DNA of 64,000 nucleotides, taken from NCBI GenBank assembly GCA_964016885.1, contig OZ024744.1, positions 125,426,001 to 125,490,000 of the forward strand. The letters are read 5' to 3'. Source of the stretch: Eledone cirrhosa (taxonomy: Eukaryota). The notes beneath the pieces were generated by a model. It saw nothing but the letters and a program-made list of their open reading frames with translations. It did not search any database and was not told where the DNA came from. A program made the translations under genes and the position numbers. Within the stretch, counting starts at the first letter, position 1. Each line of letters starts with the position of its first letter. Below are positions 581-33,081 of this stretch, piece by piece.

Positions 581-581
581 G

Positions 582-12525: not shown

Positions 12526-12622
12526 CACGTGTGTGTGTGTATATATATATATATACACACACACGTGTGTATATATATATATATACATATATATATATAC
12601 ACACACACGTGTGTGTGTATAT
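12060..12622. repeat. Compound palindromic microsatellite (TA)n(CA)nCG(TG)n; continues at 15878-16150 on the other side of the LINE
   Basis: Direct reading. Confidence 0.95.
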
Positions 12623-15600
12623 AATAATAATAATAATAATGAAATGATTGTGTACAGTGCTCAGGTGCACTACAACTCATCAAAGGTGCATGTATAGTAC
12701 ATAGAATAATGTACAAATGTCAGGAAAATAAACAGTGTATGAGTCATGATATAATAACAATAACAATAATGAAATATTGTGCACTGTGCCCAGGTGCACC
12801 ACAACCCATCAAAAAAGTGCATGTACAGTACATAGGGCAATGCACAAACATCAGTAAAATGAACAGTGCACACATGTGTGCATGTGTATGGAAGGGGCAC
12901 ATCAGGTGTAGTTTTGGCGTATTTCGGGAAGCATGAGTGTCTTAAAGGATGCAGTGTCTCGGCAGCTAACAATTGACGCAGGCAGTTTGTTCCATGTTTC
13001 AGCAACTCTGAGCGTGAAAAAATGTCTGCGAAAGTCATGGGAGCTGTGCTGTTTTCTTATCTTGTAGGCATGTCCACGTGTGTTAGACACATGGAGATCA
13101 AAGAGGCGCTCAGGGTTGCAGTTGGCGAGATGGTTAAAAACTTTGTGGGTATTCACCAAGTCCACTGCCAGATGTCGGAGCTTCAATGAATCCATGCCCA
13201 GGGAAGCAAGGCGTTCAGAGTATGGTAGGTGTCTGATGGAGGGTATGCGCTTGGTTGCACGTCTCTGAACAGCTTCCAGGAGGTCAATGTTCCGAGCAAG
13301 ATAGGGGTTCCAGACTGATGATGCGAATTCCAAGTGTGGTCGCACCATAGCTGTATACAGTTTTAAATAGATGGCTAGAGAGCGGCTAACAAAGGTCTTG
13401 CTGAGTGATGCCAAGACACCCTCGGCCTTCTTGACAATCTTAGAGACATGCTTTGTCCAACGCAAATCGTTGCCGACAGTAATGCCCAGGTCACGTTCAC
13501 AAGAGGACTTTTTGATGTCAGTGTTGTGGAGGGAGTATGTGGACGCTGGATTTTTCCTTCCAAAATGCATGGTGGTACACTTGTCCACAGCCAGCTTCAG
13601 TTGCCAGTCTGTGATCCATTGCTGCATTGTGTCCAGGTCTGATTTTAGGAAAGAGTTGTAAATTTCAGGATCAGTCCTTTTGATTTCAAGGTACAGCTTG
13701 ATGTCATCTGCATATTTTAGTACCGTGGCATTCTGTAAGTTGGCATCTATGTCATTAATATATGCCACAAACAAAAGAGGACCAAGAACAGATCCCTGTG
13801 GTACACCAGATGACATCTCATATGGTGAAGAATGCTGTCCTAGAACCGTGACTACTTTCCTTCGGCTGAGAATGAAGGATTTCAGCCAGTCGAAAAGATC
13901 ATCCCTCACACCCATTGCAGAGAGTTTTGCCATAAGTCTTTTGTGTGGCACAGAATTAAAAGCCTTAGCAAAGTCAAGGTAAACAACATCCACCCATGAG
14001 CCGCTGTCAGTGATCCGGGTGATGTCCTCAAGGAACTCGATAAGCTGATCACAGCAGCTGGAGTTAGGGATAAATCCAAACTGTGAGGGCCGGATGAGGC
14101 TGTGAGAGCTCCAGAAGTTCCAAAGTGTTTCTCTGACACAGGATTCCATCAGTTTGGCCATACAGCTAGTAAGACTGACTGGACGATAGTTGACAGGTGA
14201 CATGCGGTTGCCCTTTTTGAACAGGGGAATGACACTGGCAGTTTTCCACTGCTCCGGAGTAGCACCATTGCTGAGACAGTATTGAAAGAAAAAAGAAAGC
14301 TGGCGCAAAAGGAAATCCCCGCCACGTTTGAGAAGCAGGTATGTCACACCATCAAGACCAGGGGAGGCATAGTTGCGCTTATTCTTAAGGTGACGTCGCA
14401 ACATTGCAGGTGTAAATTCCATAGTTGTTATGGAATTTGATGTTAGAGATGGTGGAGATGGTACATTCTGGTTTTCAACAGTAAAAATACTTGCATAGCA
14501 CTCAGCAATGAGTTCTGCGCATTCCTTGGGATCGTCAGTGATCTGGCTTGTGTGGGGATTGCGAAGAGGACCAACTGGAGAGTGAGGTCTCTGCTTTGAA
14601 TGAACATATTTCCAGAACACCTTACTGTCAGGATTGGTTGCGATGCACTGTTCAAATTCAAGCACTGCCTTCTTTGTCACTTGCTTGAGATGGTTAGAAG
14701 ATTTATTCCGCTTTTTTCTGTTGGCATCTGATCTATGCAGTTTATATTCCCGTTCAGCGTTCCGACGTTCTTTCCTGGCAAGTCGGACTGCTGAAGTTTC
14801 CCAGATTGCACTTTTGGGGTGGTTATTTTTCCGCTTCCGTGGCACTGATGCTGCACACGCTATCCATATTGAGTCCAGGATGCTCTGGAGTATAGAGTTC
14901 ACATCTCCAGAGTTATACATCTCATGCCAGTTTGGGCGCTGTAGCTCAGTGCAGTACAAGTTCCAATCCGCCCTCTTCCAATCAAAGCAAGCAGATTGGA
15001 GATGGCTCTGGTTTTTGTTGCTGCCCTCAAGTGCCAGATTGGCAATGATCATAGCATGATCAGAGTCGCCTAGAGGTTCCTCAGTAGTACAACTGATAAC
15101 CACTTCAGGAGTAGTGGTGAAGATCAGGTCCAAAGTGTTGTCACCTCTTGTTGGAGAGGTGACTACTTGTGACCAGTTTGAGTCCAGCACTAGTTCAAGG
15201 AAATCGTTTGCACCCTGTGGCCAACGAAAGGTTTCCCAATCGATCTCAGGATGATTGAAGTCACCTGCAATAAACACATAAGTGGCTGTTTTCTTGGCAG
15301 CAACTCTGAGGATATCGCAAAGCTGTGTGTCCTGATGGTAGTTTGGGGGGCGATAAACAACACCAAGCAGAAGTGTTGACATGGTCATACGTATGTCACA
15401 GAAAAAAACTTCTTCCTGTGATTCGTTCAAATCAACGCAAGGAATTACCGAAAAGTTTGAACGAACGTAGACCATCACACCACCACCACGGCGGTTAATG
15501 CGGTCCTTGCGGAAAAGGTTGTACCCAGTAATGGTGAAAACCCCATCACAGAGTAAGGAATGTGCCCATGTTTCCGTGACTGTGATGAAGTCAGGGTCGA

Positions 15601-15878
15601 TGCTTCTGACGTAGGATTCGAACAGATGTATCTTGTTGCATAAACTGCGAGCATTTAAGGACAACAATTTGTACCCTGCTCGCAGTCTATGATGGTGTGT
15701 AGAGGGTGGCAGGTTGTTCTGGTTTAGTTTCCCAGAGTTGTAGCAGTTTTTACATTGCCAGTTATTGTGGGTAGATCACACTCAGACCAGCTGGTATCTC
15801 TCTTCCACGTTTCACCCGCCTTGACAAACCTCCAGATCTGCCCATCATCACGCAGACTGAAACTTTCATCTTGTGCTG
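12620..15878 (-). mobile_element. 5'-truncated CR1/Jockey-group LINE with 3' UTR and (ATT)n tail, inserted in a microsatellite
   Basis: ORF2 at 12902-15667, ~260-bp 3' UTR, (TAA)n on + at 12622-12642, and the same microsatellite on both flanks. Confidence 0.9.
12902..15667 (-). CDS. LINE ORF2: APE-type endonuclease plus reverse transcriptase, 921 aa (CR1-like)
   Basis: EN motifs LNARSL, TETW, YRPP, GDFN, SDH. RT motifs NYRPVSL, QFGF, YLDFAKAF, GVPQGSVLGP, YADD. The called start is TTG, so the true start is uncertain. Confidence 0.93.
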   Translation of the reverse strand: MLSLNARSLCNKIHLFESYVRSIDPDFITVTETWAHSLLCDGVFTITGYNLFRKDRINRRGGGVMVYVRSNFSVIPCVDLNESQEEVFFCDIRMTMSTLLLGVVYRPPNYHQDTQLCDILRVAAKKTATYVFIAGDFNHPEIDWETFRWPQGANDFLELVLDSNWSQVVTSPTRGDNTLDLIFTTTPEVVISCTTEEPLGDSDHAMIIANLALEGSNKNQSHLQSACFDWKRADWNLYCTELQRPNWHEMYNSGDVNSILQSILDSIWIACAASVPRKRKNNHPKSAIWETSAVRLARKERRNAEREYKLHRSDANRKKRNKSSNHLKQVTKKAVLEFEQCIATNPDSKVFWKYVHSKQRPHSPVGPLRNPHTSQITDDPKECAELIAECYASIFTVENQNVPSPPSLTSNSITTMEFTPAMLRRHLKNKRNYASPGLDGVTYLLLKRGGDFLLRQLSFFFQYCLSNGATPEQWKTASVIPLFKKGNRMSPVNYRPVSLTSCMAKLMESCVRETLWNFWSSHSLIRPSQFGFIPNSSCCDQLIEFLEDITRITDSGSWVDVVYLDFAKAFNSVPHKRLMAKLSAMGVRDDLFDWLKSFILSRRKVVTVLGQHSSPYEMSSGVPQGSVLGPLLFVAYINDIDANLQNATVLKYADDIKLYLEIKRTDPEIYNSFLKSDLDTMQQWITDWQLKLAVDKCTTMHFGRKNPASTYSLHNTDIKKSSCERDLGITVGNDLRWTKHVSKIVKKAEGVLASLSKTFVSRSLAIYLKLYTAMVRPHLEFASSVWNPYLARNIDLLEAVQRRATKRIPSIRHLPYSERLASLGMDSLKLRHLAVDLVNTHKVFNHLANCNPERLFDLHVSNTRGHAYKIRKQHSSHDFRRHFFTLRVAETWNKLPASIVSCRDTASFKTLMLPEIRQNYT

Positions 15879-15941
15879 TATATATATATATATACACACG
15901 TGTGTGTGTATTTATGTATATATATATATATACACACACAC

Positions 15942-15983
<42 letters not shown>

Positions 15984-16098
15984 GTGTGTGTGTGTATATA
16001 TATTTATATATATATACACACACGTGTGTGTATATATATATATATATATACACGTGTGTGTGTATTTATATATATATATATATACACACACACGTGTG

Positions 16099-16129
<31 letters not shown>

Positions 16130-16199
16130 GTGTGTGTATATATATATATCTGTCTCTCTCCCTGTCTCTCACTCTCCCTCTATCCCCCCTCTCTCTCTC

Positions 16200-16507
16200 T
16201 GTCTCTCTCACCCCCCCCCCTCTCTCTCTCTAGTAGTAGAGAGAGACAAAGAGAGAGAGATATAAACGTATAACCCTAACCAAACCCTAACCCCAACCCT
16301 AACCCTAACCTAACCCTAACCCATCTCTCTCTCTCTCTCACCCCCTCTCTCTCTCTCTAGTAGTAGAGAGAGAGACAAAGAGAGAGAGAGATATAAACGT
16401 ATAACCCTAACCCAACCCTAACCTCTCTCTCTCTTCTCTCTCTCTCTCTCCCCTCTCTCTCTCTATTCCCCCCTCTCTATTTCCCCCCCCCCTCTCTCTC
16501 TAGTAGT

Positions 16508-16538
<31 letters not shown>

Positions 16539-16622
16539 TATAAACGTATAACCCTAACCCAACCCTAACCCTAACCCAACCCCAACCCTAACCCATCTCT
16601 CTCTCTCTCTCTCTCTCTCTCT
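16200..16622. repeat. Three tandem modules of (CT)n-TAGTAGTA-(GA)n-TATAAACGTATA-(CCCTAA)n with interstitial telomere-type repeats (also ~48213-48634)
   Basis: (CCCTAA)-type tracts at ~16273-16322, 16403-16423 and 16550-16593. Confidence 0.85.
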
Positions 16623-16759
16623 TTGTTTTTAACATTGTTTTGTTTTTCTTTTCTTTTCTTATTCAGATGACAAACGGCAGAGGATACAACAGAAGAAAAG
16701 AACAAAGATAATTATTATTATTATTACTATTATTATTTGTTTTATTATAATCAAAATAT

Positions 16760-17350
16760 GCTGTTAGTTAGATCTGCATTGCGTACATTTTATATAATTT
16801 ATGCCAGTTCCTTTTCTGCATATCGAACATGGCCATTTCCCTGACGGAATAGAGTTTTGTCCTCTTTCGTGACACAAAGTACAGCCAGCGGCATCATTGC
16901 GGACAGACTTAATCCCGAATTGCACTGACACACTGCCTCGCAATACGGAACACCGCACGTCTTTGATCTTCTTCCCGTCGATCAGCCTCCTTGCCATGCT
17001 AAGTACACCTGACGTCTAGCTTCTCTCTTAGCGGCGGCTTTATATTCTTCTCTACTCCCACTAATTTTCCAAGCATTCCATGCTAGCCTTTAGTCTCCAA
17101 TGGCCCGATCTACCGTGCTGTCCCACCACCATGTCACTCTCTGTCTGGTTGGAACTCTGATCCAGCCACAAGTTTAATCAGTAGCCTGCAATAAGTTGTC
17201 ACATAAGAAAATCGAGTTCTCATGTATGTCATACGACTGTGAATCGTCTTCTTTTTCGTCATACACATATTGAAGGGCTTTCCTAAATTTCTATTTTAGT
17301 GAAATCTCTTTTAGCTTCCAGACCTTTCTTTTTTCCACATCTTCCTGTAT
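16760..17350 (-). mobile_element. Rearranged RTE fragments, partly duplicated at 18665-19190
   Basis: PSGKWPCSICRKG, REARRQVYL and VFRIARQCV remnants. The second copy continues with AMLHGSET...RRLERNEASMLRWMCNV. Confidence 0.7.
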
Positions 17351-18174
17351 GTCTCAATCATACCTGGAGCTGTCCAACATGACCATTGAAATCCCCTGCT
17401 AGCATAACGATGTCTCCGTCCTGTCATTGTGGCTGTTTGTAAAAATTGCTTGTAAATGAAGTCTTTCTTTTCTTTACCTAGCAGAAGCAATTAACACTAA
17501 CCCAACTGTAACACTAACCCTAACACTAACTTATGCAGGCCTAGGTAAAGACAAGAAAGATAAAACAAGGAGTGATGCTTCTTGAATTTTGTGATGCAAG
17601 TGTTTTAACCATTTGCAAAACCAACTTCCACAAACCTGCCTCACTGCCGCCTAATAACCTACAAATCAGGCAAGCACAGAAGCCGGATTTCTCGGTAGTT
17701 AGGCAGCGAGACAGACAGATGGGGTGTGAAGTACCAGGGTGTGCCCCGGGGAGGAATGTTTCCCACAGCGTGGGTTGGTTGTTGGTGATGTCTCGGTTAT
17801 CTTGAGACGGAGTGAGACGTGCAGGAATACTCTCACGGAATCGCCAAATGAGGTTTATTTTTCAACATAGTCCCTGGAATGAAACAATGTGGTTATTAAG
17901 AAGAATTGAAATTAATGTAAGATTTCACAGATCTATGATCAATCCTTCACAGTCAGCTTACAAAGTTTTCAGCCAAACCTTGTGTATTTCCAACATTTCA
18001 AACCCTATCTAGGACTACATTATCTAATGTACAGTACAGTAGTTAGTATTAGTGGCTATCAGACATAGTGTATCTAAATGCAACATTTTTAACATTGTTT
18101 TTTTTTTCTTTTCTTTTCTTTTCTTATTCAGATGACAGACGGCAGAGGATACAATAGAAGAAAAGAACAATGAT

Positions 18175-18596
18175 AATTATTATTATTATTATTGTTGTTA
18201 TTCCTTGAATCTCAGTCATTGATGTTGGTTAACTGGAAAGTCCGTTGGAATGAATATCAAGCCACTACCTGCAGCCTCAGATATTCAGGACGTATCGGAG
18301 GGTTCTTGCTGTTCCAAGCAAGCATGCCTTTTGAAGCGTTCCAAAAAGCGTGAAGGGGCCGATTTTCTTTAACCATCCCTGGAAACTTTTGGAGATGGAC
18401 AAAAAACTGGAACACAATAGACCTGACCTGGTGGTTGTGGACAAAGAAAAAAGATCGTGTCTGATTGTGGATGTGGCCTGCCCGTTCAACACGAGAGTGC
18501 AAGAGAAGGAGAGGGAGAAAATTAACCGATACCAGGACCTAAAGTGGGAGGTGAAAAGGATTTGGAACTGCCATGAAGTCAAAGTGATCCCGATTG

Positions 18597-18640
<44 letters not shown>
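18175..18640 (-). mobile_element. R4/Dong-like (restriction-like endonuclease) non-LTR 3' fragment with an inverted 5' part, in (TTA)n (also ~50187-50649)
   Basis: Plus strand reads HNRPDLVVVDK..IVDVACP..EKINRYQDL. Minus strand reads the C-terminus LQKACLLGTARTLRYVLNI* followed by a (TAA)n tail. Confidence 0.8.
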
Positions 18641-19235
18641 TATTATTTGTTTTATTATAATCAAAATATGCTGTTAGTTAGATCTGCATTGTGTACATTT
18701 TATATAATTTATGCCAGTTCCTTTTCTACATATCGAACATGGCCATTTCCCTGACGGAATAGAGTTTTGTCCTCTTTTCTACTCATCAACACTCATTCGT
18801 GACACAAAGTACAGCCAGCGGCATCATTGCGGACAGACTTAATCCTGATTTGCACTGACACACTGCCTCGCAATACGGAACACCGCACGTCTTTGATCTT
18901 CTTCCCGTCGATCAGCCTCCTTGCCATGCAAAGTACACCTGACGTCTAGCTTCTCTCTTAGCGGCGGCTGTATATTCTTCTCTACTCCCACTAATTTTCC
19001 AAGCATTCCATGCTAGTCTTTAGTCTCCAATGGCCCGATCTACAGTTTCTGTCTCAACTCGTCTATGCTTGGTCGTTCCTGCACATTGACATTGCACATC
19101 CAACGGAGCATGCTTGCTTCATTTCTCTCCAGCCGTCGCATGTCCTCTGCAGTTGCTGCCCGTGTCTCACTACCATGCAGCATCGCGCATCTAAACCTGG
19201 CCCTTACCCTAACCCCAACCTCTTTGGTTTTCGTT

Positions 19236-20062
19236 TTCTCGACGGCTAGCCGCATTTCGTGATCCGCCTTTCGATTGCGCTTCCGTCGCGGCAAAAGAAT
19301 TGCCTTTCCAGACCGGACCGGACCCATGATAGAAGACGTTCGTTACCGTTGGAGCAACGCAAATTACTCCTCGGTTGACGCCAAAAACGAACGCCTTCCC
19401 GCCTCGCGCCGCCTTCTCCTCGCCGACCCTCGGCCTCGACGATTAGCCACTTTCCGTCACAGCAGTAGATACGCGTCCGTCGTAATAGCCGTCATTTTAA
19501 CGCAGGAGAAACGCCTAATTGCCCTGCACCGCGTTTGACGGCGATCTACGACGGCGACGATGCGCGCACTCTTCCTTGCTGCGACGAAGGTTTCGGCTTT
19601 TCGTCGTGGACCCGGTCAGGTCATGCCGCTGACCTCGCGTTACGGCGACGCGAGAAGACGTTCGTTACCGCTGGAGCAACGCAAATTACTCCTCGGTTGA
19701 CGCCAAAAACGAACGCCTCGCGCCGCCGCTTCCTCCTCGGCCTCGACGATTAGCCGCTTTCCGTCACAGCAGTAGATACGCGTCCATCGTAATAGCCGTC
19801 ATTTTAACGCAGGAGAAACGCCTTGACGACGATATACGACGGGTCGACGACGCGCGCACTCTTTCTGCTGCGACGAAGGTTTTGGCTTTTCGTTGTGGAC
19901 CCGGTCGGGTCATGCCTCTGACCTCGCGTTGCGTCGCCACCGCCGCGGCGGGCTTGGGTTTAGCCGTAGCTACCCTCGTTTTGCCAACGGCGACGCGAGA
20001 AGACGTTCGTTACCGCTGGAGCAACGCAAATTACTCCTCGGATGAGGCCAAAAACGAACGCT
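19236..20062 (+). repeat. Diverged upstream duplicate of the 172-bp repeat and ETS-like leader (also ~51248-52083)
   Basis: Three copies of the core agaagacgttcgttaccgctggagcaacgcaaattactcctcgg plus two copies of sequence matching 27180-27365. Confidence 0.85.
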
Positions 20063-20140
20063 GAAGAGATATTGTCCATGGATATCGGGAATTTTACCCG
20101 CCCTAGATAGATAGATAGATAGGGATGTATGTATGTATGT

Positions 20141-20180
<40 letters not shown>

Positions 20181-20559
20181 GTATGTATCTTTCTCATTCT
20201 CTCTGTATGTATGTATGTATGTATATATATATAATTATATATTTATAGACATCCTGAAAGCTTTTTAAATGTCTGAGAGATTGGCTAAATATGTTTTGCA
20301 GGTATGACCAGTAAGAGAGAGGTAAGTTATTTCAAAACAATTCTTTGACCATTATTTTAAGGTACTATCTCAGTGTATTTTTAAATTGACCTCTTGATAG
20401 GATGAAATGACCTGTATAATTTTTTTCATATTTAGATGGAATAGAAGAAAAACAAGAAAAATGAAATGAATTCAAACAGAAAATATACACCAATGCCAAT
20501 GGAGGTATGATTTCAGTTTAATCTTAACCTAATGACCACTTTACAGAGTGTACTGGATA

Positions 20560-20642
<83 letters not shown>

Positions 20643-21039
20643 AGGAAGCTCCAACCGTTAAGGTTGTCTTTCCATTTATTAATATATTGTGTATTTACTC
20701 CACTAAACTGTTGAGTGCTTTATATCAGTTATAAAAAAATTTCAGCTTGTTGAATCCCAAAATAGTTGTTGAAACAGCCACAGCTCAGCCGTCGGGGTCC
20801 TGAATATTTATCATATATATATACGTATGAGTGTGTGTGTTTTGAGAATTAATAATTATATAAACAAGTTTGTAATGAACAATTTATTTCTTATCAAAAC
20901 TGTATAAACATGATATTATTTACAGTAAGAATAACAATAATAATGATGGTTTCTAGTAAAGGTGGAAGGCCAGTAATTTGGGGGAGGGGAAAGTTGATTA
21001 AATCGAAGAGAGAAAGAAAGAAAAAACAGAACGGGAAGG

Positions 21040-21590
21040 AGAGGGGATGGCAAGAGGTCCGGTGTCGCAGGAGAGAGGGGAGGGTGGTTGAGCTTTGAGT
21101 CTAGGGCAAGAGGGCAGAAATGCTGCGCCCCACGGATAAGACGGCAAAAATATTCTCGCGGACGATGGCCAGAGATACCCAATGCAACAACCACCCAACC
21201 TCGCGGTGTTCCCTCCTCAGATGGGCTGCTGACTCTCCGATCTTTTGGAGGAGCTCGGCAGTACAAGGTCCAAGTACTCCTGGGGTCTCGACGTTGACTG
21301 GTGCAGAGAGGAAGTGGCCGGACAATCCTCGGTATTTGTTTATTTTACGTTCTTCTGCGAGGTGGGCTGCGATGCCGGGGTTTGTGACCGAAACGACTTG
21401 GAAACGAAGTTGTAGGCGGAGATTGTGTCGTAGCTGGTGGTGTCCCAGATGAGGGACCTACGTCCTTCGAATGGGAAGAGAGTGATTCCGTCGGGGCGCT
21501 TGCCATCTCCGGGACCTGTTGGCCCCAGTTGTGATGGGAAGCCAGCTGCGTCCAGGCTTCTTCTCAATATGTCGTTGACAACGACGTGTA
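21040..21590 (-). mobile_element. Frameshifted CRE-like non-LTR retrotransposon C-terminal RLE fragment (also ~53053-53603)
   Basis: GDGKRPDGITLFPFEGRRSLIWDTT, VETPGVLGP and SLAIVRENIFAVL lie in different frames. Confidence 0.7.
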
Positions 21591-22134
21591 TCTATTCAAT
21601 AATTATTTGAATATTGAAATTTTAGGTTTAACTACCTTTTAAACCAAATACATTAAGAAAGGCATGACCAACACCACATCATTTTTATTTCTATTTTGAA
21701 AGTAGGTTTATAAGTATTAAATTTCAGTAGATTCTTATATCCTTCATGGTGGTCTGGTGGGAGATACGAGAGATGGTGGAGGTTCTGGTCTGGGGTTCAA
21801 TCCTGCTCAGGAGATACTCTAAGGGGGTTCATACTAAACTTCTTCAGTGTTTCTTATCTCTAGAGACAAATATATATACATAAGGTAATCTGGTAAAGTT
21901 GTTAGAACATCACATAGAATTCTTTGTAGTATTTTTTCCAGTTCTTCAATCTGAGTTCAACTTTACTTTTCTTCCATTCGGGGTTGATAATAACGTACCA
22001 GTCAAATACTAGGGGTTAATTCTTCCTCTATATCTCTTTCTCACTCTCTGTCTGTTTTATTAAGACCTGGAGAGGTGATGTACTCTACCAGGTTTTATAA
22101 TGAGTGATGGGGTCATACCTGCCTGCTACACCTC

Positions 22135-22455
22135 TGTGTACTAAGTGTAGCATATTATATCCTTGTTCAGGGCCTTCCTGACATTACTGTGTACTAAGGG
22201 TAGCATTTTATATCCTTGTTCAGGGCCATCTTAACATTGCTGTGTACTAAGTGTAGCATATTATATCCTTGTTCGGGGCCTTCCTGACATTAGTGTGTAC
22301 TGAGTGTAGATTTTAACATCCTTGTTCTGGGCCTTCCTAACATTACTGTGTACTGAGTGTAGATTTTAACATCTTTGTTCAGAGCCTTCCTTACATTACT
22401 GTGTACTAAGTGTAGCATTTCATATACTTGTTCTGGGCCTTCCTAACGTTACTGT
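22135..22455. repeat. 53-bp minisatellite, ~6 copies (also ~54148-54468)
   Basis: Unit tgtgtactaagtgtagcatattatatccttgttcagggccttcctgacattac. Confidence 0.9.
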
Positions 22456-23235
22456 GGAAATAGTAGTTTATATCCAATATGTAATATAGATATGGATTCT
22501 ACAGGACTAAAACTCATTAATATGAGGGGTATTAGTAGATTATATGCCATATTTAATAGAGAAATGGCTTCTACAAGACTAAAACTCATTAATATGAGGG
22601 GTATTACAGTTTATATTCCATATTTAATACAGAAATGGCTTCTAAAGGACTAGAACTCTTTAAATTGAATAAAATAGTAGTATATATCCTATGTTTAATA
22701 CAGAAATGCCTTCTAAAGGACTCATTAATATGAGGGTATTAGTAGATTATATAACATATTTAATACAGAAATGGCTTTTAAATTCAGGGACTCGTTAATT
22801 TGATGGAAATAGTAGTGTCTATGCAATATTTAATACAGAAATAGCTTCTACAGGACTAAAACTAATTAATATGAGGGGTATTAGTAGTATATGTGCCATA
22901 TTTAATACAGAGATGGCTTCTAAATGGAGGTATCTCATTAATTCGATTGAAATGGTAGTGTATATGCAATATTTAATACAGAAATAGCTTCTACAAGAAT
23001 AAAACTCATTAATATGAAGGTTATTATTACATTATATGCCATATTTAATACAGAAATCGGTTCTAAAGGACTAGAACTCTTTAATTCAAATCAAATAGTA
23101 GTATAAAGCAATATTTACTACAGAAATGGCTTCTACAAGACTAAAAATCCTTAATATGAGGGGTATTGTTAGATTATATACCATATTTAATACAGAAATG
23201 GCTTCTAAATGAAGAAATCTCTTTAATTCGATAGT
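22456..23235. repeat. ~72-bp AT-rich minisatellite, ~11 diverged copies (also ~54469-55248)
   Basis: atatttaatacagaaatggcttcta recurs every ~72 bp. Confidence 0.85.
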
Positions 23236-23882
23236 AATAGTAATAATAATAATAGTAATAGTAATAATACAGCCAATTTTCCACGCAATACTTTTAGTTA
23301 GCACCCCGAACGCATAATTGGGAATATAATCACTTATTTCCTAATGTTTGTTGAGTGAGTTGGGAAAAAAAACTTGGGAAATATATTTTCAGGGTCTCAA
23401 AATCTTAAAGAGAAAAAAAAGTCCTGTGGAAGGTAGCAAAACAATTAGGAAGAAAATGGTTTGAAGTTGGTTGGTGAGTATAAGATTACAGTATCTTGTT
23501 GATTTCTATAAAGTTTACTTTTAACTGAATTGGTAAAAATGGATAAATTAGAAGACACAATATAATAACTAATATTGTCTTCTAAAACAGGGAATAAAAA
23601 TATGTTGGTGTATTGGGGGGGGGTAAACATGTGAGTTAATGGGAATGTTTTTGTTTGTTTTTATTGAAACATATTCAATCTACAGATAGGTTGTTATAGT
23701 TATTTAGTCTCGGGTCTGCCATTATCTGCAGATTTATAATTGAGGGGTGTTCCAGGTGTGACCACCCTACATTATTCCTAGAGATTGTTACTCCTTCATT
23801 CTTCAGTCATCTTGGTCTTCTTATGAGATGGTGGTGTAGTCTTATTTATTGTTAAGGTTATGGTCTTCCTTTGTCCACACTC

Positions 23883-23924
<42 letters not shown>

Positions 23925-24199
23925 AAAGGCTTCCTTCTCTGGAAAAAGATGATTTAATATTCACAACCATCTGTCTAATTGTTTTCTGATGAGAATAAAG
24001 TTAATCTTGCTTGTATGTCTACCTGATCAAATGACTGGCTGATATCTTGAAGTCATTTACACCACAGAACTGTAGGAGTCTTGATCCCTCAAGCCATACC
24101 TCTAGCCATCATGTACTCCAAAAGAGTCTCACCTTGGTGCTACTCAACATGTCCATTAAATTTAGCAGCAAGGATGCCCTCTTCTTAGTGAGAGACAAC

Positions 24200-24940
24200 T
24201 ACAAGAGAGGTTCTTAGAGAAGAATAAGCCACTATAGTTAACTTTTGTTGACATAGAGAACCCCGATCTGTCATCTGGTGGTCCTTAAGGAAACTAGGTG
24301 TAGGGGAATGGCTTGTGAGGACAGTGCAAGCTATGTACAAGGGTGCTGTCAGTAAAGTGAGAGGAGGAATTCCAGAAACAAAGTAGGTGTACATCAGGGT
24401 TCGGTCCTCAGTCCGCTCTTGTTCATTATAGTCCTCCCTCCCTCCCTCCCTCCAAGCCATAACAGAGGAGGAGTAGTTTAAGACTGGATGCCCATGGGAA
24501 CTTCTCTATGCTGACGATCTGGTTCTTATAGCAGAATCAGTAGAGGAGCTAGCTAGAGAATAAATTCTGGCTATGGAAACAGCAGTAGTTGGAATCAAGA
24601 AGACTGAGAGTGAACCTAGCTAAGACAAAAGTGTTTATAAGTAGAAGAGAGGACAAAACTCTGATTCTGTCAGGGAAATGGCCATGTTCGATATGTAGGA
24701 AAGGAGTTGGCATAAATTCTATGAAATGTAGTACGCAATGCAGATCTTGGCTACACAAGAGATGTAGTGGGATAGCAGGAAAACTGACTGACAGGTAGGG
24801 AGAAATACGTATGCAGTAGATGTACAGGGAAATTTGACAGAGATTGCAGTGATAGACACATTTTTCAAATGCAGGTGGGATCTATAGAGGGAGTTGATAG
24901 CTTCTGATACCTAGGTGATCAGATTAGTAAGGGAGGAGGG
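24200..24940 (+). mobile_element. Decayed RTE RT core with a Cys-rich insert (also ~56220-56968)
   Basis: VHQGSVLSPLLF, LLYADDL, LRVNLAKTKV and KWPCSICRKG...CRSWLHKRCSG, interrupted by stops. Confidence 0.85.
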
Positions 24941-25471
24941 TGATATAAAATATATTGTTATCATGACTGTCTTTATTATTTAAATTACCTCTGTCTATTT
25001 ACAGATTTTACAGAGTGTACTGGGTGCTTTTATGATGGGAGCAGCAACTCTATACGATTTTACAGAGTGTACTTGGTGCTTTTATCATGGCACATGGCAG
25101 CAGCAGAAGCAGCAACTACGATTTTACAGAGTGTACTTGGTGCTTTTTACTCTGACATCAGCACTGAGGAAGTTGTCATATTTTCAGCTAAATTAATGAG
25201 TAGAAAAACCAAGTTTCTGCTACAAAAAATTCTCAGATTCAAGGGAGACATTCAGTTTAAGTATGGTATACTGTCACTAAGGCAGCAAATTGGCAGAGTC
25301 GCTAGAATATCAGATAGCATTCTTTACATTATTTGTTTCAGCTCTCTGTTCTCTCAATTCAAATCCTGCTCAGGTCAACTTTGCCTTTCATCCATACAAA
25401 ATAGATTAATAAAAGTACCAGTGTATTACTGGGGTCAATTCTTCTTCTAACTCTTCTGCACTTCCATTCTC

Positions 25472-25512
<41 letters not shown>

Positions 25513-25759
25513 GCTTCTTTAGAACACATCTGCTGTATTCAGACCTGGAGCGGAGATGGGCTCCACCAAGTTTTAAAAATTGCCCTTTAAGCGCTGTATG
25601 TCAATATGGTGCCCCTATGATTCCCTCCCTCAGGAGTTATGGGACCATAGATACTGTCAATTGTAAAGAATAACAGAGATATTCAGTGCTAGTGTGGTGT
25701 TCTGTCAGTTGTGGAGATTGATGAATCTAAACAGAAATATCAACAGCACTTTTCATTTC

Positions 25760-25935
25760 TGAGTAACACATTTGTTACCAAGTGCTGCATGGCTGGAATG
25801 AAAATCAGTGCTGTGAAAACCAAGACATTCATCCTCTCAAGGAAGCTTGTGCAGTGCACTCTACATGTAAATGGAGTCCCACTGAAGCAGGTAGAAAAGT
25901 TCATGTATCTCGAAGCTGTGTTCACGAGTGATGAC
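25760..25935 (+). mobile_element. Short LINE RT thumb-region fragment (also ~57828-58003)
   Basis: GMKISAVKTKT...LKQVEKFMYLEAVFTSD. Confidence 0.6.
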
Positions 25936-25982
25936 AGAGACGGCAAAGGCACAACACACAACAGAAGAAAAGAACAATGACA

Positions 25983-26015
<33 letters not shown>

Positions 26016-26077
26016 TGTTTTATTAGTTTTATTATAATAAAAATTGTGCTGTTAGTTTGCTTGCTATACCATCATGT

Positions 26078-26170
26078 ACCCTAACCCTAAACCTAACCCC
26101 AACTCCAACTCTGACCCTAAACCTAACCCCAACCCCAACCCCAACCCTAACCCTAACCCTAACCCTAACC
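26078..26170. repeat. Interstitial telomere-type (CCCTAA)n tract abutting the 172-bp array (shorter in copy 2, 58144-58205)
   Basis: Direct reading. Confidence 0.9.
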
Positions 26171-27101
26171 CACGATAGAAGACGTTCGTTACCGCTGGAG
26201 CAACGCAAATTACTCCTCGGTTGACGCCAAAAACGAACGCCTTCTCGACGGCTAGCCGCATTTCGTGATCCGCCTTTCGATTGCGCTTCCGTCGCGGAAA
26301 AAGAATTGCCTTTATAGGCCGCCGCCGCCGCCCGACCGGACCCACGATAGAAGACGTTCGTTACCGCTGGAGCAACGCAAATTACTCCTCGGTTGACGCC
26401 AAAAACGAACGCCTTCTCGACGGCTAGCCGCATTTCGTGATCCGCCTTTCGATTGCGCTTCCGTCGCGGAAAAAGAATTGCCTTTATAGGCCGCCGCCGC
26501 CGCCCGACCGGACCCACGATAGAAGACGTTCGTTACCGCTGGAGCAACGCAAATTACTCCTCGGTTGACGCCAAAAACGAACGCCTTCTCGACGGCTAGC
26601 CGCATTTCGTGATCCGCCTTTCGATTGCGCTTCCGTCGCGGAAAAAGAATTGCCTTTATAGGCCGCCGCCGCCGCCCGACCGGACCCACGATAGAAGACG
26701 TTCGTTACCGCTGGAGCAACGCAAATTACTCCTCGGTTGACGCCAAAAACGAACGCCTTCTCGACGGCTAGCCGCATTTCGTGATCCGCCTTTCGATTGC
26801 GCTTCCGTCGCGGAAAAAGAATTGCCTTTATAGGCCGCCGCCGCCGCCCGACCGGACCCACGATAGAAGACGTTCGTTACCGCTGGAGCAACGCAAATTA
26901 CTCCTCGGTTGACGCCAAAAACGAACGCCTTCTCGACGGCTAGCCGCATTTCGTGATCCGCCTTTCGATTGCGCTTCCGTCGCGGAAAAAGAATTGCCTT
27001 TATAGGCCGCCGCCGCCGCCCGACCGGACCCACGATAGAAGACGTTCGTTACCGCTGGAGCAACGCAAATTACTCCTCGGTTGACGCCAAAAACGAACGC
27101 C
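26169..27101 (+). promoter_or_regulatory. 172-bp GC-rich tandem repeats (5 full plus 1 partial); putative Pol I spacer-promoter/enhancer array
   Basis: Exact 172-bp period directly upstream of the 18S start. TATAGG occurs at 26313, 26485, 26657, 26829 and 27001. The repeat is certain; the promoter role is inferred. Confidence 0.55.
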
Positions 27102-27461
27102 TTCCGGTTCGGGCGACGTAAAAGTCTGTAGCCTTTTCGCCGATCCTCGACGATTATCCGCCTTCCGAACAACCGCCTTTCCGCCGTCACAGCAGTAGGT
27201 ACTCGTCCGTCGTAATAGCCGTCATTTTAATGCAGGAGAAACGCCTAAATGCACTGCGATTGACGACGATCTACGACGCGCTTACTCTTCCTTGCTGCGA
27301 CGAAGGTTTCGTTCGGCTTTTCGTCGTGGACCCGGTCAGGTCATGCCGCTGATCTCGCGTTGCGTCGTTACCGCTGGAGCAACGCAAATTACTCCTCGTT
27401 TAACGCCAACATCGAACGCGCTTCGGTTCTCGGTCGTCGTTGTTTTGTTTCGTGCGGAAGA
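27102..27461 (+). other. Putative 5' external transcribed spacer (also 59125-59484)
   Basis: CpG-rich segment between the repeats and the 18S 5' end; positional inference. Confidence 0.55.
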
Positions 27462-27646
27462 TACCTGGGTGATCCTGCCAGTAGTCATATGCTTGTCTCA
27501 AAGCTTAAGCCATGCAAGTGGAAGTTCATGCCGTAAACGAAAATGGTGAAACCGCGAATGGCTCAGGAACCGGATCTAATCCTCGGGACCGTATTCCTCA
27601 CCGCGAGGAGAGGATAACTGTGGCAATTCTAGAGCTAATACATGCA
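27462..27646 (+). rRNA. 18S rRNA 5' end only (~185 nt; truncated, diverged)
   Basis: TACCTGGgTGATCCTGCCAGTAGTCATATGCTTGTCTCAAAG..TAAGCCATGCA, GGTGAAACCGCGAATGGCTCA and GGATAACTGTGGCAATTCTAGAGCTAATACATGC occur in canonical order and spacing. Confidence 0.93.
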
Positions 27647-27650
27647 ATTG

Positions 27651-30600
27651 AGATCGGAGAGGGAGCGATCCGTCTGCTTGATTCCGATAACGAACGAGAC
27701 ATTCGTATCCGAAAGAACGTTTGTCTGGAAACTGGTGCAGTCAGTGAGTCGAAAAAAAAATATCTCGGTGGTAGTAGCAAATATTCGAACGAGACATTCG
27801 TATGCGAAAGAACGTTTGTCGGTGGTAGTAGCAAATATTCGAACGAGACATTCGTATGCGAAAGAACGTTTGTCTGGAAGTGGCGATCCATGCCCGGTGG
27901 ATAGTTGGTTCCGGGTTTTACTATGATTGTTGCAAAACAGAAACTTAAAGGGATTGACAGAATTTGCGATTCCGGAGAGAGGGCGATCCGTCTGCTTGAT
28001 TCCGATAACGAACGAGACATTCGTATCCGAAAGAACGTTTGTCTGGAAACTGGTGAGTCAGTGAGTCGAAAAAAAAATATCTCGGTGGTAGTAGCAAATA
28101 TTCGAACGAGACATTCGTAGGCGAAAGAAAAATATCTCGGTGGTAGTAGCAAATATTCGAACGAGACATTCGTATGCGAAAGAACGTTTGTCGGTGGTAG
28201 TAGCAAATATTCGAACGAGACATTCGTATGCGAAAGAACGTTTGTCGGTGGTAGTAGCAAATATTCGAACGAGACATTCGTATGCGAAAGAACGTTTGTC
28301 TGGAAGTGGCGATCCATGCCCGGTGGATAGTTGGTTCCGGGTTTTACTATGATTGTTGCAAAACAAAAACTTAAAGGGATTGACAGAATTTGCGATTCCG
28401 GAGAGAGGGCGATCCGTCTGCTTGATTCCGATAACGAACGAGACATTCGTATCCGAAAGAACGTTTGTCTGGAAACTGGTGAGTCAGTGAGTCGAAAAAA
28501 AAATATCTCGGTGGTAGTAGCAAATATTCGAACGAGACATTCGTATGCGAAAGAACGTTTGTCGGTGGTAGTAGCAAATATTCGAACGAGACATTCGTAT
28601 GCGAAAGAACGTTTGTCTGGAAGTGGCGATCCATGCCCGGTGGATAGTTGGTTCCGGGTTTTACTATGATTGTTGCAAAACAGAAACTTAAAGGGATTGA
28701 CAGAATTTGCGATTACGGAGAGGGGGCGATCCGTCTGCTTGATTCCGATAACGAACGAGACATTCGTATCCGAAAGAACGTTTGTCTGGAAACTGGTGAG
28801 TCAGTGAGTCGAAAAAAAAATATCTCGGTGGTAGTGGCAAATATTCGAACGAGACATTCGTATGCGAAAGAACGTTTGTCGGTGGTAGTAGCAAATATTC
28901 GAACGAGACATTCGTATGCGAAAGAACGTTTGTCTGGAAGTGGCGATCCATGCCCGGTGGATAGTTGGTTCCGGGTTTTACTATGATTGTTGCAAAACAG
29001 AAACTTAAAGGGATTGACAGAATTTGCGATTACGGAGAGGGGGCGATCCGTCTGCTTGATTCCGATAACGAACGAGACATTCGTATCCGAAAGAACGTTT
29101 GTCTGGAAACTGGTGAGTCAGTGAGTCGAAAAAAAAATATCTCGGTGGTAGTGGCAAATATTCGAACGAGACATTCGTATGCGAAAGAACGTTTGTCGGT
29201 GGTAGTAGCAAATATTCGAACGAGACATTCGTATGCGAAAGAACGTTTGTCTGGAAGTGGCGATCCATGCCCGGTGGATAGTTGGTTCCGGGTTTTACTA
29301 TGATTGTTGCAAAACAGAAACTTAAAGGGATTGACAGAATTTGCGATTACGGAGAGGGGGCGATCCGTCTGCTTGATTCCGATAACGAACGAGACATTCG
29401 TATCCGAAAGAACGTTTGTCTGGAAACTGGTGAGTCAGTGAGTCGAAAAAAAAATATCTCGGTGGTAGTAGCAAATATTCGAACGAGACATTCGTATGCG
29501 AAAGAACGTTTGTCGGTGGTAGTAGCAAATATTCGAACGAGACATTCGTATGCGAAAGAACGTTTGTCTGGAAGTGGCGATCCATGCCCGGTGGATAGTT
29601 GGTTCCGGGTTTTACTATGATTGTTGCAAAACAGAAACTTAAAGGGATTGACAGAATTTGCGATTACGGAGAGGGGGCGATCCGTCTGCTTGATTCCGAT
29701 AACGAACGAGACATTCGTATCCGAAAGAACGTTTGTCTGGAAACTGGTGAGTCAGTGAGTCGAAAAAAAAATATCTCGGTGGTAGTAGCAAATATTCGAA
29801 CGAGACATTCGTATGCGAAAGAACGTTTGTCGGTGGTAGTAGCAAATATTCGAACGAGACATTCGTATGCGAAAGAACGTTTGTCTGGAAGTGGCGATCC
29901 ATGCCCGGTGGATAGTTGGTTCCGGGTTTTACTATGATTGTTGCAAAACAGAAACTTAAAGGGATTGACAGAATTTGCGATTCCGGAGAGGGGGCGATCC
30001 GTCTGCTTGATTCCGATAACGAACGAGACATTCGTATCCGAAAGAACGTTTGTCTGGAAACTGGTGAGTCGAAAAAAAAATATCTCGGTGGTAGTAGCAA
30101 ATATTCGTATGCGAAAGAAAAGATCTCGGTGGTAGTAGCAAATATTCGAACGAGACATTCGTAGGCGAAAGAAAAATATCTCGGTGGTAGTAGCAAATAT
30201 TCGAACGAGACATTCGTATGCGAAAGAACGTTTGTCGGTGGTAGTAGCAAATATTCGAACGAGACATTCGTATGCGAAAGAACGTTTGTCTGGAAGTGGC
30301 GATCCATGCCCGGTGGATAGTTGGTTCCGGGTTTTACTATGATTGTTGCAAAACAGAAACTTAAAGGGATTGACAGAATTTGCGATTCCGGAGAAGGGGC
30401 GATCCGTCTGCTTGATTCCGATAACGAACGAGACATTCGTATCCGAAAGAACGTTTGTCTGGAAACTGGTGAGTCAGTGAGTCGAAAAAAAAATATCTCG
30501 GTGGTAGTAGCAAATATTCGAACGAGACATTCGTATGCGAAAGAAAAATATCTCGGTGGTAGTAGCAAATATTCGAACGAGACATTCGTATGCGAAAGAA

Positions 30601-31058
30601 CGTTTGTCTGGAAGTGGCGATCCATGCTCGGTGGATAGTTGGTTCCGGGTTTTACTATGATTGTTGCAAAACAGAAACTTAAAGGGATTGACAGAATTTG
30701 CGATTCCGGAGAGGGGGCGATCCGTCTGCTTGATTCCGATAACGAACGAGACATTCGTATCCGAAAGAACGTTTGTCTGGAAACTGGTGAGTCAGTGAGT
30801 CGAAAAAAAAATATCTCGGTGGTAGTAGCAAATATTCGTATGCGAAAGAAAAGATCTCGGTGGTAGTAGCAAATATTCGAACGAGACATTCGTATGCGAA
30901 AGAAAAATATCTCGGTGGTAGTAGCAAATATTCGAACGAGACATTCGTATTCGAAAGAACGTTTGTCTGGAAGTTGCGATCCATGCCCGGTGGATAGTTG
31001 GTTCCGGGCTTTACTATGATTGTTGCAAAACAGAAACTTAAAGGAATTGACAGAATTT
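27651..31058 (+). repeat. rRNA-mosaic tandem array: 10 monomers (mostly 317 bp; others 318-426 bp) built from 18S and 28S motifs
   Basis: Each monomer has 18S-like GATTCCGGAGAGGG, GATTCCGATAACGAACGAGAC, CATTCGTAT, GCGAAAG and GGTTCCGGG..GTTGCAAA..GAAACTTAAAGG.ATTGAC, plus 28S-like ATCTcGGTGGTAGTAGCAAATATTCgAACGAGA. Confidence 0.93.
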
Positions 31059-31084
31059 TCGAATCGACATCAACTCGGCTACGG

Positions 31085-31440
31085 CTATCCCGTCGAGTAC
31101 GAGAGTATCGCGGGATCAGAGCAACGGTTTGCTAGGCTGCCTCTGAGCGATAACGGCTGAACGCCTCCTCTAAGCCGGAACCCTAGCCGGACCCGAGTTG
31201 TTTTTCGACAAGCGTCTCGACCTTCTTAAGGCCCATGCCTTAGTTTGGCGATTGCCGTCCGTTCGCCGACGGCGGCAGCGTCAGCGGAAATGCCATTCTG
31301 TGACGACTACGACGATTCGTCGTCGTCGTCGTCCATTCGATTTCCTGAAAGAGATAGAGACTAAAGTGATCAAATTGTTCGGAGTTACGTGCTTAGTAGA
31401 GCAGCTACCACACTGCAATCTATTGAGAGTTTTCTGACGA
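31085..31440 (+). rRNA. 28S rRNA 3'-terminal remnant (domain VI: sarcin-ricin helix to 3' end), diverged
   Basis: AGTACGAGAG (31096), GATAACGGCTGAACGCCTC..TAAG (31149), CCATTCTGTGACGAC (31293) and GTAGAGCAGCT...CTGCAATCTATTGA (31397) occur in canonical order. Confidence 0.85.
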
Positions 31441-33081
31441 ACGATACAATCCGCCCACGTGGCGCCAGAAAGGGAGAAGAAAAGAAAAGTTAGACGCCGC
31501 CGATCGATCGGTTCGTTGTTTTACGTGTACACAGCTTGTGTGTGTGTCTGTATGTGATACAAGCCGCCTATCCGTCTTCCAAGTAAGTTTTGTGTGTAGA
31601 CTGCGGAAAGAAATCCAATCCGCCGTCTAGGCGGTTCTGCCGCCGACCCATACTTTTGCGAGTCGCTCCCGGGAAAGACAGGCGGCAAGACGGCGTGTAT
31701 ACACGACGCCTTCCGTCTTCCGCCTCGAACCCGGCAAACGTTCCTTTATTCGTCCACGCCTTCCCGCTTCGATCGCGAGAAAGTAATCAATCTGTTTTGT
31801 GTGTGATACAAATTTGTTTTCTTAATTTGATAACCATGAATTGTTTCAACACCGGCCCTTTTAAGGGCCACTTATATTTTCAATAATCAGTTTAAATGGG
31901 TTGCACCGTAGCCACTTGGTAATACACTGCAAATCTCCCGTCAATCTATGAAGGTTTTGTAGTAGATTAGATCAAAACACAATCAGCAAGACAGTAATGG
32001 AATGAATAATATAAACATTTGTTTATAATTAAAGCCTTAAGATGTCCCTCCCTCCCTCCCTTCCTCCCTTCCTTCCTTCCTTCCTTCCTTCCTTACGATA
32101 TACACTTTAATAACATTGAAACTTATTTAATAAGTTTAAATTTTAAACACTTTTTATTCAGACGTACCGCGATAAGTAACTAGATATGTTCTAACGAATA
32201 ATCCGCGATGTGGCGAGGATTACCGCGATAGGAAATTAGATACGTTCCAAAGAAATATCCGCGAAAAGTGAACCGCGATATAGCGGGTTCACCAGCCAGT
32301 GTATTACTGGTACTTTATTTTATCGACCCCCATAAGGATGAAAGGCAAAGTTAACTGTGCAATAACAAAGGGAGATAACCTCGTCTTTTTTTTTTTACGG
32401 AGTTATTTCCCTTTAAATTTTATCTATTACTTATGATGATACAATTTAATCAGTTCTTAGCTGTCGAGACACTGCATCCTTTAAAACCTCCATGGAACAA
32501 GCTACCTGCAACAGTTGTTAGCTGTCGAGACACTGCATCTTTTAAAACCTCCATGGAACAAACTACCTGCATCAGTTGTTAGGGTCTGAGTTCAAATCAC
32601 GCCGAGGAGGTTAACTTTGCCTTTCATCCTTACGGGGTCGGTCGGAAAACGAACCATTCCCGGTTCGCTTTCGAAGCGGGTTTCCGAAAACAGCGCTTCT
32701 CTCGACCGGGCCCGTCGTCCGCTCGGCGGTGGTTTTCATCGTCCCAGGCACGGCTAACAGGCGGAGACGGGACAAACGCGCGTGTTCCTTTTTTTATCAG
32801 CCGCAGCGCCGTTCGTATATATGCTTAGGTTGTTTTTTTTTTAAATATCCTAAGTTAAGTTGGGGCTAAGTTAAGTTGGGGCTAAGTTAAGTTGAGGTTA
32901 AGTTGAGTTGGGGTTAAGTTAAGTGGGGGTTAAGTTAAGCTGGGGTTAAGTTAAGTTGAGGTTAAGTTAAGTTGGGGTTAAGTCAAGTTGGGGTTAAGTT
33001 AAGTTGGGGTTAAGTTAGGTTGGGGTTAAGTTAGGTTGGGGTTAAGTTAAGTTGGGGTTAAGTTAGGTTGCGGTTAAGTTA

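Follow-up and report, generated by a model that had tools for sequence, protein, structure and literature searches.

Introduction

Broken rDNA units are expected to be removed by concerted evolution. On the Y chromosome of Drosophila simulans, Lohe and Roberts reportedly found, in 1990, amplified spacer without rRNA genes (cited in PMC7919458). Amplified rDNA pseudogenes are described from Cycas revoluta (~50% of the 45S copies), Podisma (18S), and Gnetum and Ephedra (5S), and in the account of Ephedra, concerted evolution can homogenize such pseudogenes (PMC10462631, PMC6526317). As described there, these are mutated or lightly deleted copies, which in Cycas are heterogeneous. IGS-derived satellites are also on record (PMC10257491), as is the Drosophila SCLR region, which is described as comprising Stellate, Copia-like, LINE, and rDNA fragments (PMC6325706).

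In a 64,000 nt stretch of the Eledone cirrhosa assembly (hereafter, the window), an earlier note had proposed that a hollowed-out rDNA unit encodes a new lncRNA. Here, we report that such units are a large tandem family in which both ends are kept, and the interior is a repeated rRNA patchwork. Like the amplified pseudogenes reported, the family is non-functional rDNA at copy numbers similar to those of functional genes. In contrast to them, it is one homogeneous class in which >90% of the interior is lost and a mosaic, rearranged and amplified, has been gained. It shows decay at conserved positions, as an orphon would, but comprises 59 units with a pi of <0.001 in the rDNA-derived parts, and its interior is permuted rather than colinear. 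With the rDNA-derived satellites and spacer arrays on record, it shares an rDNA origin and the tandem amplification of rDNA pieces apart from canonical units, outside working NORs; those arrays, as portrayed in the source, stem from spacer sub-repeats, whereas the hollow monomer derives from 18S and 28S coding-core and ITS1 scraps within a framed unit, rather than from an IGS sub-repeat without a coding frame. SCLR resembles it as a repeated block that combines a LINE with rDNA fragments, but is present in few copies, and the portion of its description cited here includes neither a framed hollow unit nor an internal mosaic array. rRNA-derived SINEs, such as SINE28, are likewise reported to reuse rRNA fragments in a repeat family (PMC10946416), whereas the hollow family is tandem and DNA-level, has upstream repeats and a spacer, and does not consist of short, dispersed, retroposed copies. 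Finally, engineered pseudo-NORs, neo-NORs, and SSU-only or LSU-only rDNA plasmids are, as reported, also arrays of Pol I cis-elements with partial or no pre-rRNA (PMC4973289, PMC11463421); those systems are synthetic, whereas the hollow array is natural.

Anatomy of the hollow unit

Intact rDNA of the same genome served as the reference for unit anatomy, and the promoter-like repeats, ETS-like leader, 18S start, 10 monomers, and 28S end listed in the earlier note were all confirmed against it. The rDNA transcription unit is embedded in ordinary repeat-rich DNA, and all of its parts lie on the + strand. A telomere-like hexamer run (26078..26171) directly abuts the first of 5.4 copies of a 172-bp repeat (26168..27104) that is 92–95% identical to repeats found upstream of the canonical 18S, where 2–3 copies lie 1.3–1.9 kb from the gene. 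Hollow units have at least 3–7 copies in the ~1.5 kb taken, compared to the canonical 2–3. They are probably promoter or spacer-promoter repeats. The leader (27105..27461) is shortened. A 5′ETS remnant at 27145–27376 (9 substitutions in 220 nt relative to the canonical sequence) is separated from the final 44 nt of the 5′ETS (27418–27461) by a deletion of about 800 nt, at which a piece of the upstream repeat (27365–27424) has been re-inserted. A 76-nt stretch with a T-run, adjoining the last upstream repeat, is also deleted and, given these two losses, the promoter may be damaged. The 18S sequence (nt 1 to ~190; 27462..27652) begins at the mature first base, 27462, with 4 substitutions in 186 aligned nt and 2 indels; the conserved positions that are changed lie in helix 1 and the stem before helix 8.

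The internal array (27655..31066) comprises 10 monomers, mostly of 317–318 bp, but up to 426 bp, in which pieces of 18–58 nt from 18S, ITS1, and 28S are joined. The monomer consists of 18S 575–592, 18S 2042–2080, ITS1 289–307, ~40 nt of no assigned source, 28S 2076–2121 with an ITS1 piece (a 54-bp sub-repeat), 28S 1392–1413, and 18S 1843–1900. Six exact matches to rDNA of at least 14 nt cover 129 of the 317 monomer bases, and no such match occurred in any of 30 shuffles, or on the opposite strand of the monomer. The ITS1 piece, nt 289–307, is exact at 19/19 positions and scored best against 60 shuffles. The absence of the 18S 3′ end, 5.8S, ITS, and peptidyl-transferase center had been claimed previously; an exact 13-mer test returned 1, 0, 0, and 3 stray matches to the 18S 3′ half, 5.8S, ITS2, and central 28S, respectively, so that the claim stands for these four regions, but not for ITS1. 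Nowhere in the hollow unit are complete 18S, 5.8S, and 28S present in order. A candidate 5.8S remnant at 27721–27761 was dropped, having p = 0.037 against 5.8S alone and not being the best of 130 windows.

Since the pieces meet at shared words (5 nt at 18S 592/2042, 4 nt at 28S 2121/ITS1 289, and a 10-nt word common to 18S 2071–2080 and 28S 2107–2116), the joints look like products of microhomology repair. The Rfam-matched core makes up at most ~57% of these long rRNAs and is the source of all 5 coding scraps that could be placed securely (p about 0.06, with ascertainment bias; core and expansion segments were assigned from Rfam alignments of 7 slices). Low GC content was not significantly favored among the retained scraps (p = 0.11). 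A 30-mer across the monomer joint had no match in metagenome contigs, and a search with an 18S motif for an outgroup sequence had none in viral contigs.

The 28S 3′ end (31067..31460; Rfam LSU model 3005–3399, 61.6 bits) had correctly been recognized, but its ~390 nt, which correspond to ~460 canonical nt, exceed the ~350 nt first estimated. Over 383 nt, it carries 29–31 substitutions, with 8 gaps. Internally, three segments of 26, 33, and ~15–18 nt have been deleted, and two of these deletions remove whole hairpins. The sarcin-ricin loop is canonical in 0/38 units and mutated in 32. With 4/186 substitutions against 29/383, the 18S end is less diverged than the 28S one (p = 0.007). The counts of changed CpG sites (5/93 in the 28S end; 0–1 of 58–63 in the ETS) are uninformative on CpG decay. 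The GC-rich tail reported after the 28S is a 3′ETS/3′ spacer remnant (31461..31791; 27 substitutions in 273 aligned nt), matching canonical rDNA over 31517–31791. Just downstream lies a 73-bp piece (31810..31882) of a dispersed fold-back repeat that originated from the 3′ end of a histone H4; the piece carries a sense-strand histone stem-loop at 31854–31869 that is intact in 31/31 units. A search for U7 gave no match, and its control was equally blank.

The spacer contains other rDNA scraps that differ in age. A separate and younger 28S fragment at 32645..32851 (+ strand) corresponds to nt ~684–878, has 3 substitutions in 195 nt, and precedes a 16-bp telomere-like satellite. The upstream repeat and 5′ETS start are found a second time, rearranged and 5–7% substituted from the canonical sequence, at 19228..20061 (+ strand); promoter-type sequence thus occurs twice per unit. 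An open LINE endonuclease/reverse-transcriptase ORF of 857 aa is located at 12902..15475 on the − strand. Dispersed repeats are the only sequence that the hollow-unit spacer shares with the canonical spacer examined, and no tRNA genes were found in the window. A passenger protein gene driving amplification was rejected: of 76 frames scanned (including 66 of one 103-frame set, with LINE-internal, repeat-duplicate, and second-promoter frames left out), the LINE alone passed a Pfam cut-off.

Copy number and organization

The locus had been taken to be single, but belongs to a macro-repeat with 59 assembled units. Within the window, one period (1..32001, unstranded) is repeated at +32001 in a copy that differs by 15 substitutions in ~27.7 kb, so that the ~32-kb tandem unit is present twice; the second hollow unit (58203..64000, + strand) has the repeats, the leader, and an 18S start at 59485, and its array is cut by the window end. 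Forty-three of the 59 units are inside one ~1.8-Mb array. They are arranged head-to-tail as homogeneous copies, with common flanks and a macro-repeat size of 28–91 kb. By comparison, the canonical 18S allele has 22 matches in the assembly, none of which is on a contig bearing hollow units. Read depth in one short-read run, X1, was 3947–4030 for hollow-specific contigs and 3571–3703 for canonical-allele contigs at the same sites (~1.1×), and the hollow units look about as abundant as real ribosomal genes. The earlier statement that this is not an ordinary pseudogene is therefore upheld, by both the number of assembled units and the X1 depth.

As rDNA is hard to assemble and adjacent units are near identical, an assembly artefact had to be considered. 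It is extremely improbable, given that the monomer–28S joint is bridged without differences by short-read contigs from X1 (record 1) and, in a different study, X4 (record 13), that a further X4 contig (record 14) continuously covers the 28S end, spacer, and flank, that hollow depth is ~1.1× canonical, and that monomer order differs among units. The structure is real. Hollow-type contigs from X4, X5, and X6 were rejected as orthologs; although they carry other organism codes, they are identical to the window unit, and we therefore read them as same-species traces, most of them being near the depth floor or ragged.

About 8% of the 18S–28S span is retained in the unit. The distance from 18S start to 28S end, previously put at ~4–5 kb, does have a median of 5.0 kb (33/38 units seen end to end), but ranges from 1.3 to >9 kb, or ~sevenfold. 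Units contain 2 to 25+ monomers of 263–587 bp. The last monomer is 336–337 bp in 28/32 units having a 3′ end; such near-fixed end monomers, alongside so variable a number, are the pattern expected of unequal crossing-over. Variants between monomers lie within the rRNA-derived pieces. That the array encodes a repetitive peptide, as ORFs of 94–416 aa on both of its strands might suggest, is very improbable, given that the 3 array ORFs tested had no Pfam match and the monomer lengths shift the frame freely. Some units are decayed: L069 is without leader and 18S, and a C18 copy is without its 3′ end. Nearly all units examined still have the two mature rRNA termini, whereas the spacers are rearranged.

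Tests for selection and RNA function

Across units, pi is 0.0002–0.0009 inside the gene-like part and 0–0.004 in the flanks, a comparison of low power among units so young and alike. Homogeneity extends over the whole 32-kb unit, including flanks that are not rDNA. The monomer folds no better than its shuffles (z = −0.18), and substitutions spare folding energy no more than random ones do (p = 0.10, 0.24, and 0.43, at low power). With a broken sarcin-ricin loop, shuffle-level folding, and equally homogeneous flanks, the RNA sequence is not visibly selected. The U3 box A site in the 18S start is kept, and a change at 18S position 8 lengthens the predicted duplex with the genome's own U3 box A (−17.0 vs. 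−14.9 kcal/mol), which could be chance.

These data bear on the proposal that the units are a functional family of Pol I lncRNAs, acting as a decoy or as the seed of their own nucleolus-like body. U3 and the small-subunit processome would be recruited by the leader and 18S start, while the array would present rRNA core sites in many copies to snoRNPs or assembly factors; the end of the RNA would be set by either the 28S end or the histone stem-loop. Consistent with this are upstream repeats that are not only retained, but more numerous than canonical, exactly retained mature 5′ and 3′ ends, the longer U3 box A duplex (one change), the core bias among scraps, the intact sense-strand stem-loop, and a report that partial rDNA constructs build nucleoli de novo in human cells (PMC11463421). 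Even so, we consider the proposal unlikely: no structural or sequence constraint was found, unit length varies about sevenfold, U3 hinge-site matches in the leader are at chance level (p 0.45–0.68), the ETS and T-run deletions may have damaged the promoter, and the stem-loop belongs to a repeat that is common right next to the array. The step taken in the earlier note, from a reorganized, amplified, and homogenized locus to a functional lncRNA, is thus not supported, since homogeneity includes the non-rDNA flanks and the retained ends are mutated at conserved positions.

Discussion

Our preferred reading, which we hold to be somewhat probable, is that a defective rDNA unit became a multicopy locus of its own, spreading as an rDNA-like array. 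Microhomology-mediated deletion and template switching would have removed the interior stepwise, leaving scraps of the rRNA core in a patchwork of ~260 bp; this patchwork would then have grown as a VNTR, and the whole 30–45-kb block as the macro-repeat, through unequal crossing-over. Less surely, the retained cis-acting ends may have let the array use the machinery that amplifies and homogenizes rDNA, in the manner of mitochondrial genomes that have suffered deletions but retain their origins. The chances of some Pol I transcription of the array seem about even, and any RNA would be a by-product, unable to become rRNA.

In weighing the defective-unit reading, we counted the decayed units, the spacer scraps of various ages, and the broken sarcin-ricin loop in its favor, and the survival of the termini, the core origin of the scraps, and the lower divergence of the 18S end against it. 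A depth on par with canonical rDNA is also much to carry for nothing, which likewise weighs against this reading.

It may instead be the DNA, rather than an RNA, that matters, with the array serving as a natural pseudo-NOR-like block that would bind Pol I factors, buffer rDNA dosage, or act as a pairing or segregation site. A megabase array of promoter-type repeats, two such sequences per unit, set apart from assembled canonical units, would suit such a role; factor-binding arrays are reported to form pseudo-NORs (PMC4973289), and Drosophila spacer repeats to affect chromatid segregation in cis (PMC9031259). However, this leaves the coding-derived monomer array and the 28S end unexplained, and we regard it as quite unlikely. 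A bolder possibility, tentative and on balance rather doubtful, is a natural second NOR in which the hollow units, about half of those bearing an rDNA promoter, would be active, making from multimerized rRNA core motifs a non-ribosomal Pol I RNA of variable length that engages U3 at an 18S start that cannot mature, and maybe ends at the captured histone stem-loop.

A radically gutted class of rDNA thus fills a megabase array of its own and, in one run, matches the real genes in depth. If silent, the array would be a clean natural experiment on whether amplification and homogenization can be driven by rDNA cis elements alone, and a pitfall in this lineage for studies that use rDNA copy number, 18S probes, or barcodes. 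If transcribed, it would be a natural counterpart of engineered partial-rDNA nucleoli, and would show which pieces of rRNA are sufficient to recruit processing factors. Were the active second NOR to prove true, rDNA would have given rise to a new class of gene.

Results

Anatomy of the hollow unit

Mapped onto intact (canonical) rDNA units from other contigs of the same 3.0 Gb genome, in which the rRNAs are long (18S, 2,876 nt; 28S, about 6,340 nt), the hollow unit retains about 8% of the 18S–28S span. Such rRNA lengths, like the repeat content of this genome, would suit an octopod cephalopod. Its first element is a telomere-like run (26078–26171), followed by 5.4 copies of a 172-bp repeat matching repeats upstream of the canonical 18S, a leader of 5′ETS remnants that lacks about 800 nt, 18S nt 1–190, an array of ten monomers, a 28S 3′ end of ~390 nt representing the last ~460 nt of the canonical 28S, a remnant of the 3′ spacer, and a 73-bp histone-H4-derived fold-back repeat carrying a sense stem-loop. 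At curated Rfam cut-offs, the histone stem-loop is the sole match in the whole window; a relaxed scan of 26000–33500 additionally picked up the 28S 3′ end, at 61.6 bits, and, weakly, the 5′ part of 18S.

The hollow 172-bp repeats each carry a TATA-like word (for one, at 26997–27006), where canonical repeats are 1–2 bases different; this candidate start-site motif resembles those of plant and insect Pol I. Telomere-like repeats adjoin rDNA-derived pieces at both sides (26078–26171 and 32851–33081), the left joint having 4 letters in common with the repeat, and these junctions could be healed breaks. Elsewhere, a dispersed fold-back repeat consists of two inverted histone H4 3′ ends, each with a good stem-loop, ~90 bp apart (C18, ~4.9–12.7 Mb; C28, 126.58–126.91 Mb; loci L051, L052, L054, L056, L058, and L059). 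Dozens of 75 matches are of this paired kind; among 10 loci read, three are real H4 genes with a similar stem-loop and most others are the fold-back repeat.

The mostly ~317-bp monomer comprises, in order, 18S 575–592, 18S 2042–2080, ITS1 289–307, about 40 nt without assignment, 28S 2076–2121, 28S 1392–1413, and 18S 1843–1900. A second occurrence of the ITS1 piece together with 28S 2076–2121 makes up a 54-bp sub-repeat. The earlier note was mistaken in finding no ITS. Six exact matches to rDNA of at least 14 nt cover 129 of the 317 bases, and none arose in 30 shuffles. In the first pass through the hollow unit the pieces are colinear with pre-rRNA, and their joints coincide with stretches of 4–10 nt that both sides have in common. 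The interior is VNTR-like and the edge monomers are nearly fixed. Of the 38 units examined, 33 were seen end to end and carry 2–24 monomers (median 13), four had already reached 23–25 where the examined stretch ended, and one ran off the end of its contig. Across the genome, a 27-mer from the monomer matches at 932 places.

A tandemly amplified block

The window (C28:125,426,001–125,490,000) covers two copies of a tandem unit of 32,001 bp, with 15 substitutions between them in about 27.7 kb. A joint-specific 25-mer has 59 exact matches (43 on C28, one on C18, and 15 across five small contigs) and the corresponding canonical 25-mer has 22, neither figure being a copy number, since rDNA is usually collapsed in assemblies. 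On C28 the array occupies roughly 124.69–126.47 Mb, with units spaced at a median of 37.8 kb (range 28–91 kb). The rDNA-derived, framed structure proposed from the sequence was confirmed on intact rDNA and enlarged to a tandem macro-repeat with 59 assembled joints. Mis-assembly, which the earlier note had raised as grounds for refutation, is made very unlikely by short-read contigs of two studies (runs X1 and X4), which bridge the monomer–28S joint without differences. Run X1, which may come from the assembled animal and has no stated library type, behaves as DNA because the non-rDNA flank is covered like the remaining parts. Its six hollow-specific contigs have depths of 3947–4030 versus 3571–3703 for canonical-allele contigs at three 28S sites, a ratio near 1.1 from paralogous sites of like composition, contig depth not being copy number.

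Canonical rDNA forms short clusters on C4, C12, and C25, with neighbors about 20 to 40 kb apart (L017–L029 and 18S-allele matches), and many single copies on further contigs; in a copy on C2, the 28S is interrupted by ~5 kb.

The block's spacer and the canonical spacer examined have only dispersed repeats in common. The former contains a LINE, whose ORF2 (12902–15775, − strand) has an open frame and was amplified along with the macro-repeat, as well as additional rDNA scraps that differ in age (1.5% to 7%). In unit L090, some of the spacer upstream of the LINE is missing. A 196-bp satellite (1081–5105) is organized in inverted blocks and in higher-order repeats of 1.58 kb, which vary in number among units, and at the left array end (L063:1–6500) lie about 6.5 kb of a 16-bp satellite in both orientations.

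Tests for constraint and function

Homogenization had been taken as a sign of a lncRNA gene. The homogeneity holds among 19–37 units, but it is not special to the gene-like part: diversity is as low in the flanks, and homogeneity therefore belongs to the whole block. Monomers show no more folding than shuffled sequences do (z = −0.18). The 28S end has kept its ability to fold (z = −4.1), but substitutions are no gentler on folding than random ones (28S, p = 0.105; 18S, 0.24; ETS, 0.43). Frequent monomer variants lie within rRNA-derived pieces. The change at 18S position 8 disrupts a base pair of helix 1, and the stem before helix 8 has lost 2 nt. Wherever the 3′ end of a unit could be read, the sarcin-ricin loop is altered: 32 units carry the mutated form and none the canonical one. 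At 31095–31109, three substitutions and a 1-nt deletion change this loop into a near Watson–Crick hairpin (−17.1 kcal/mol, versus −12.6 for a similar canonical stretch), which looks like quasi-palindrome correction. Any RNA made would be unable to mature into rRNA.

Some observations point to a function of some kind, without being decisive. Both mature rRNA termini persist across units while spacers are rearranged; all five securely placed coding scraps (5/5) lie in the model-matched rRNA core; the 18S end differs less from the canonical sequence than the 28S end does (4/186 versus 29/383 differences, p = 0.007); and the position-8 change gives a longer predicted duplex with U3 box A. Constraint would account for the closer 18S end, but so would a more recent renewal of the 5′ module, given that the ETS is only 4.1% different over two lineages. 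We regard a selected lncRNA as unlikely, and a role at the DNA level as slightly less likely still. U3 snoRNA itself has a 7-copy gene cluster at C7 44.21–44.23 Mb, among 15 genome matches.

Discussion

By the features tested, the hollow unit falls outside functional rDNA, dispersed pseudogenes, spacer-derived satellites, and rRNA SINEs. As far as the parts of the sources compared go, it bears a partial likeness to amplified rDNA pseudogenes (PMC10462631, PMC6526317), spacer-derived satellites (PMC10257491, PMC7919458), the Drosophila SCLR block (PMC6325706), and engineered pseudo-NORs and neo-NORs (PMC4973289, PMC11463421); passages on rRNA-derived SINEs (PMC10946416) and Drosophila rDNA spacer repeats (PMC9031259) served as further comparisons. 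Passages of an octopus ribosome preprint (PMC13321053) mention rDNA once and no hollow unit. In a search of mainly open-access literature, we found no account of a homogeneous rDNA class that retains both ends around a multimerized coding mosaic, though supplements of genome notes could contain one.

The hollow unit derives from rDNA. Its interior was probably lost stepwise at microhomologies, and the block carrying it was amplified in tandem. Through the retained cis elements, the block would be coupled to amplification of the rDNA type and perhaps also be transcribed by Pol I; an active second NOR producing non-ribosomal RNA seems rather doubtful to us. We think it probable that this is a defective rDNA unit that became amplified with its cis elements, and the hollow array behaves like a defective rDNA array that maintains itself.
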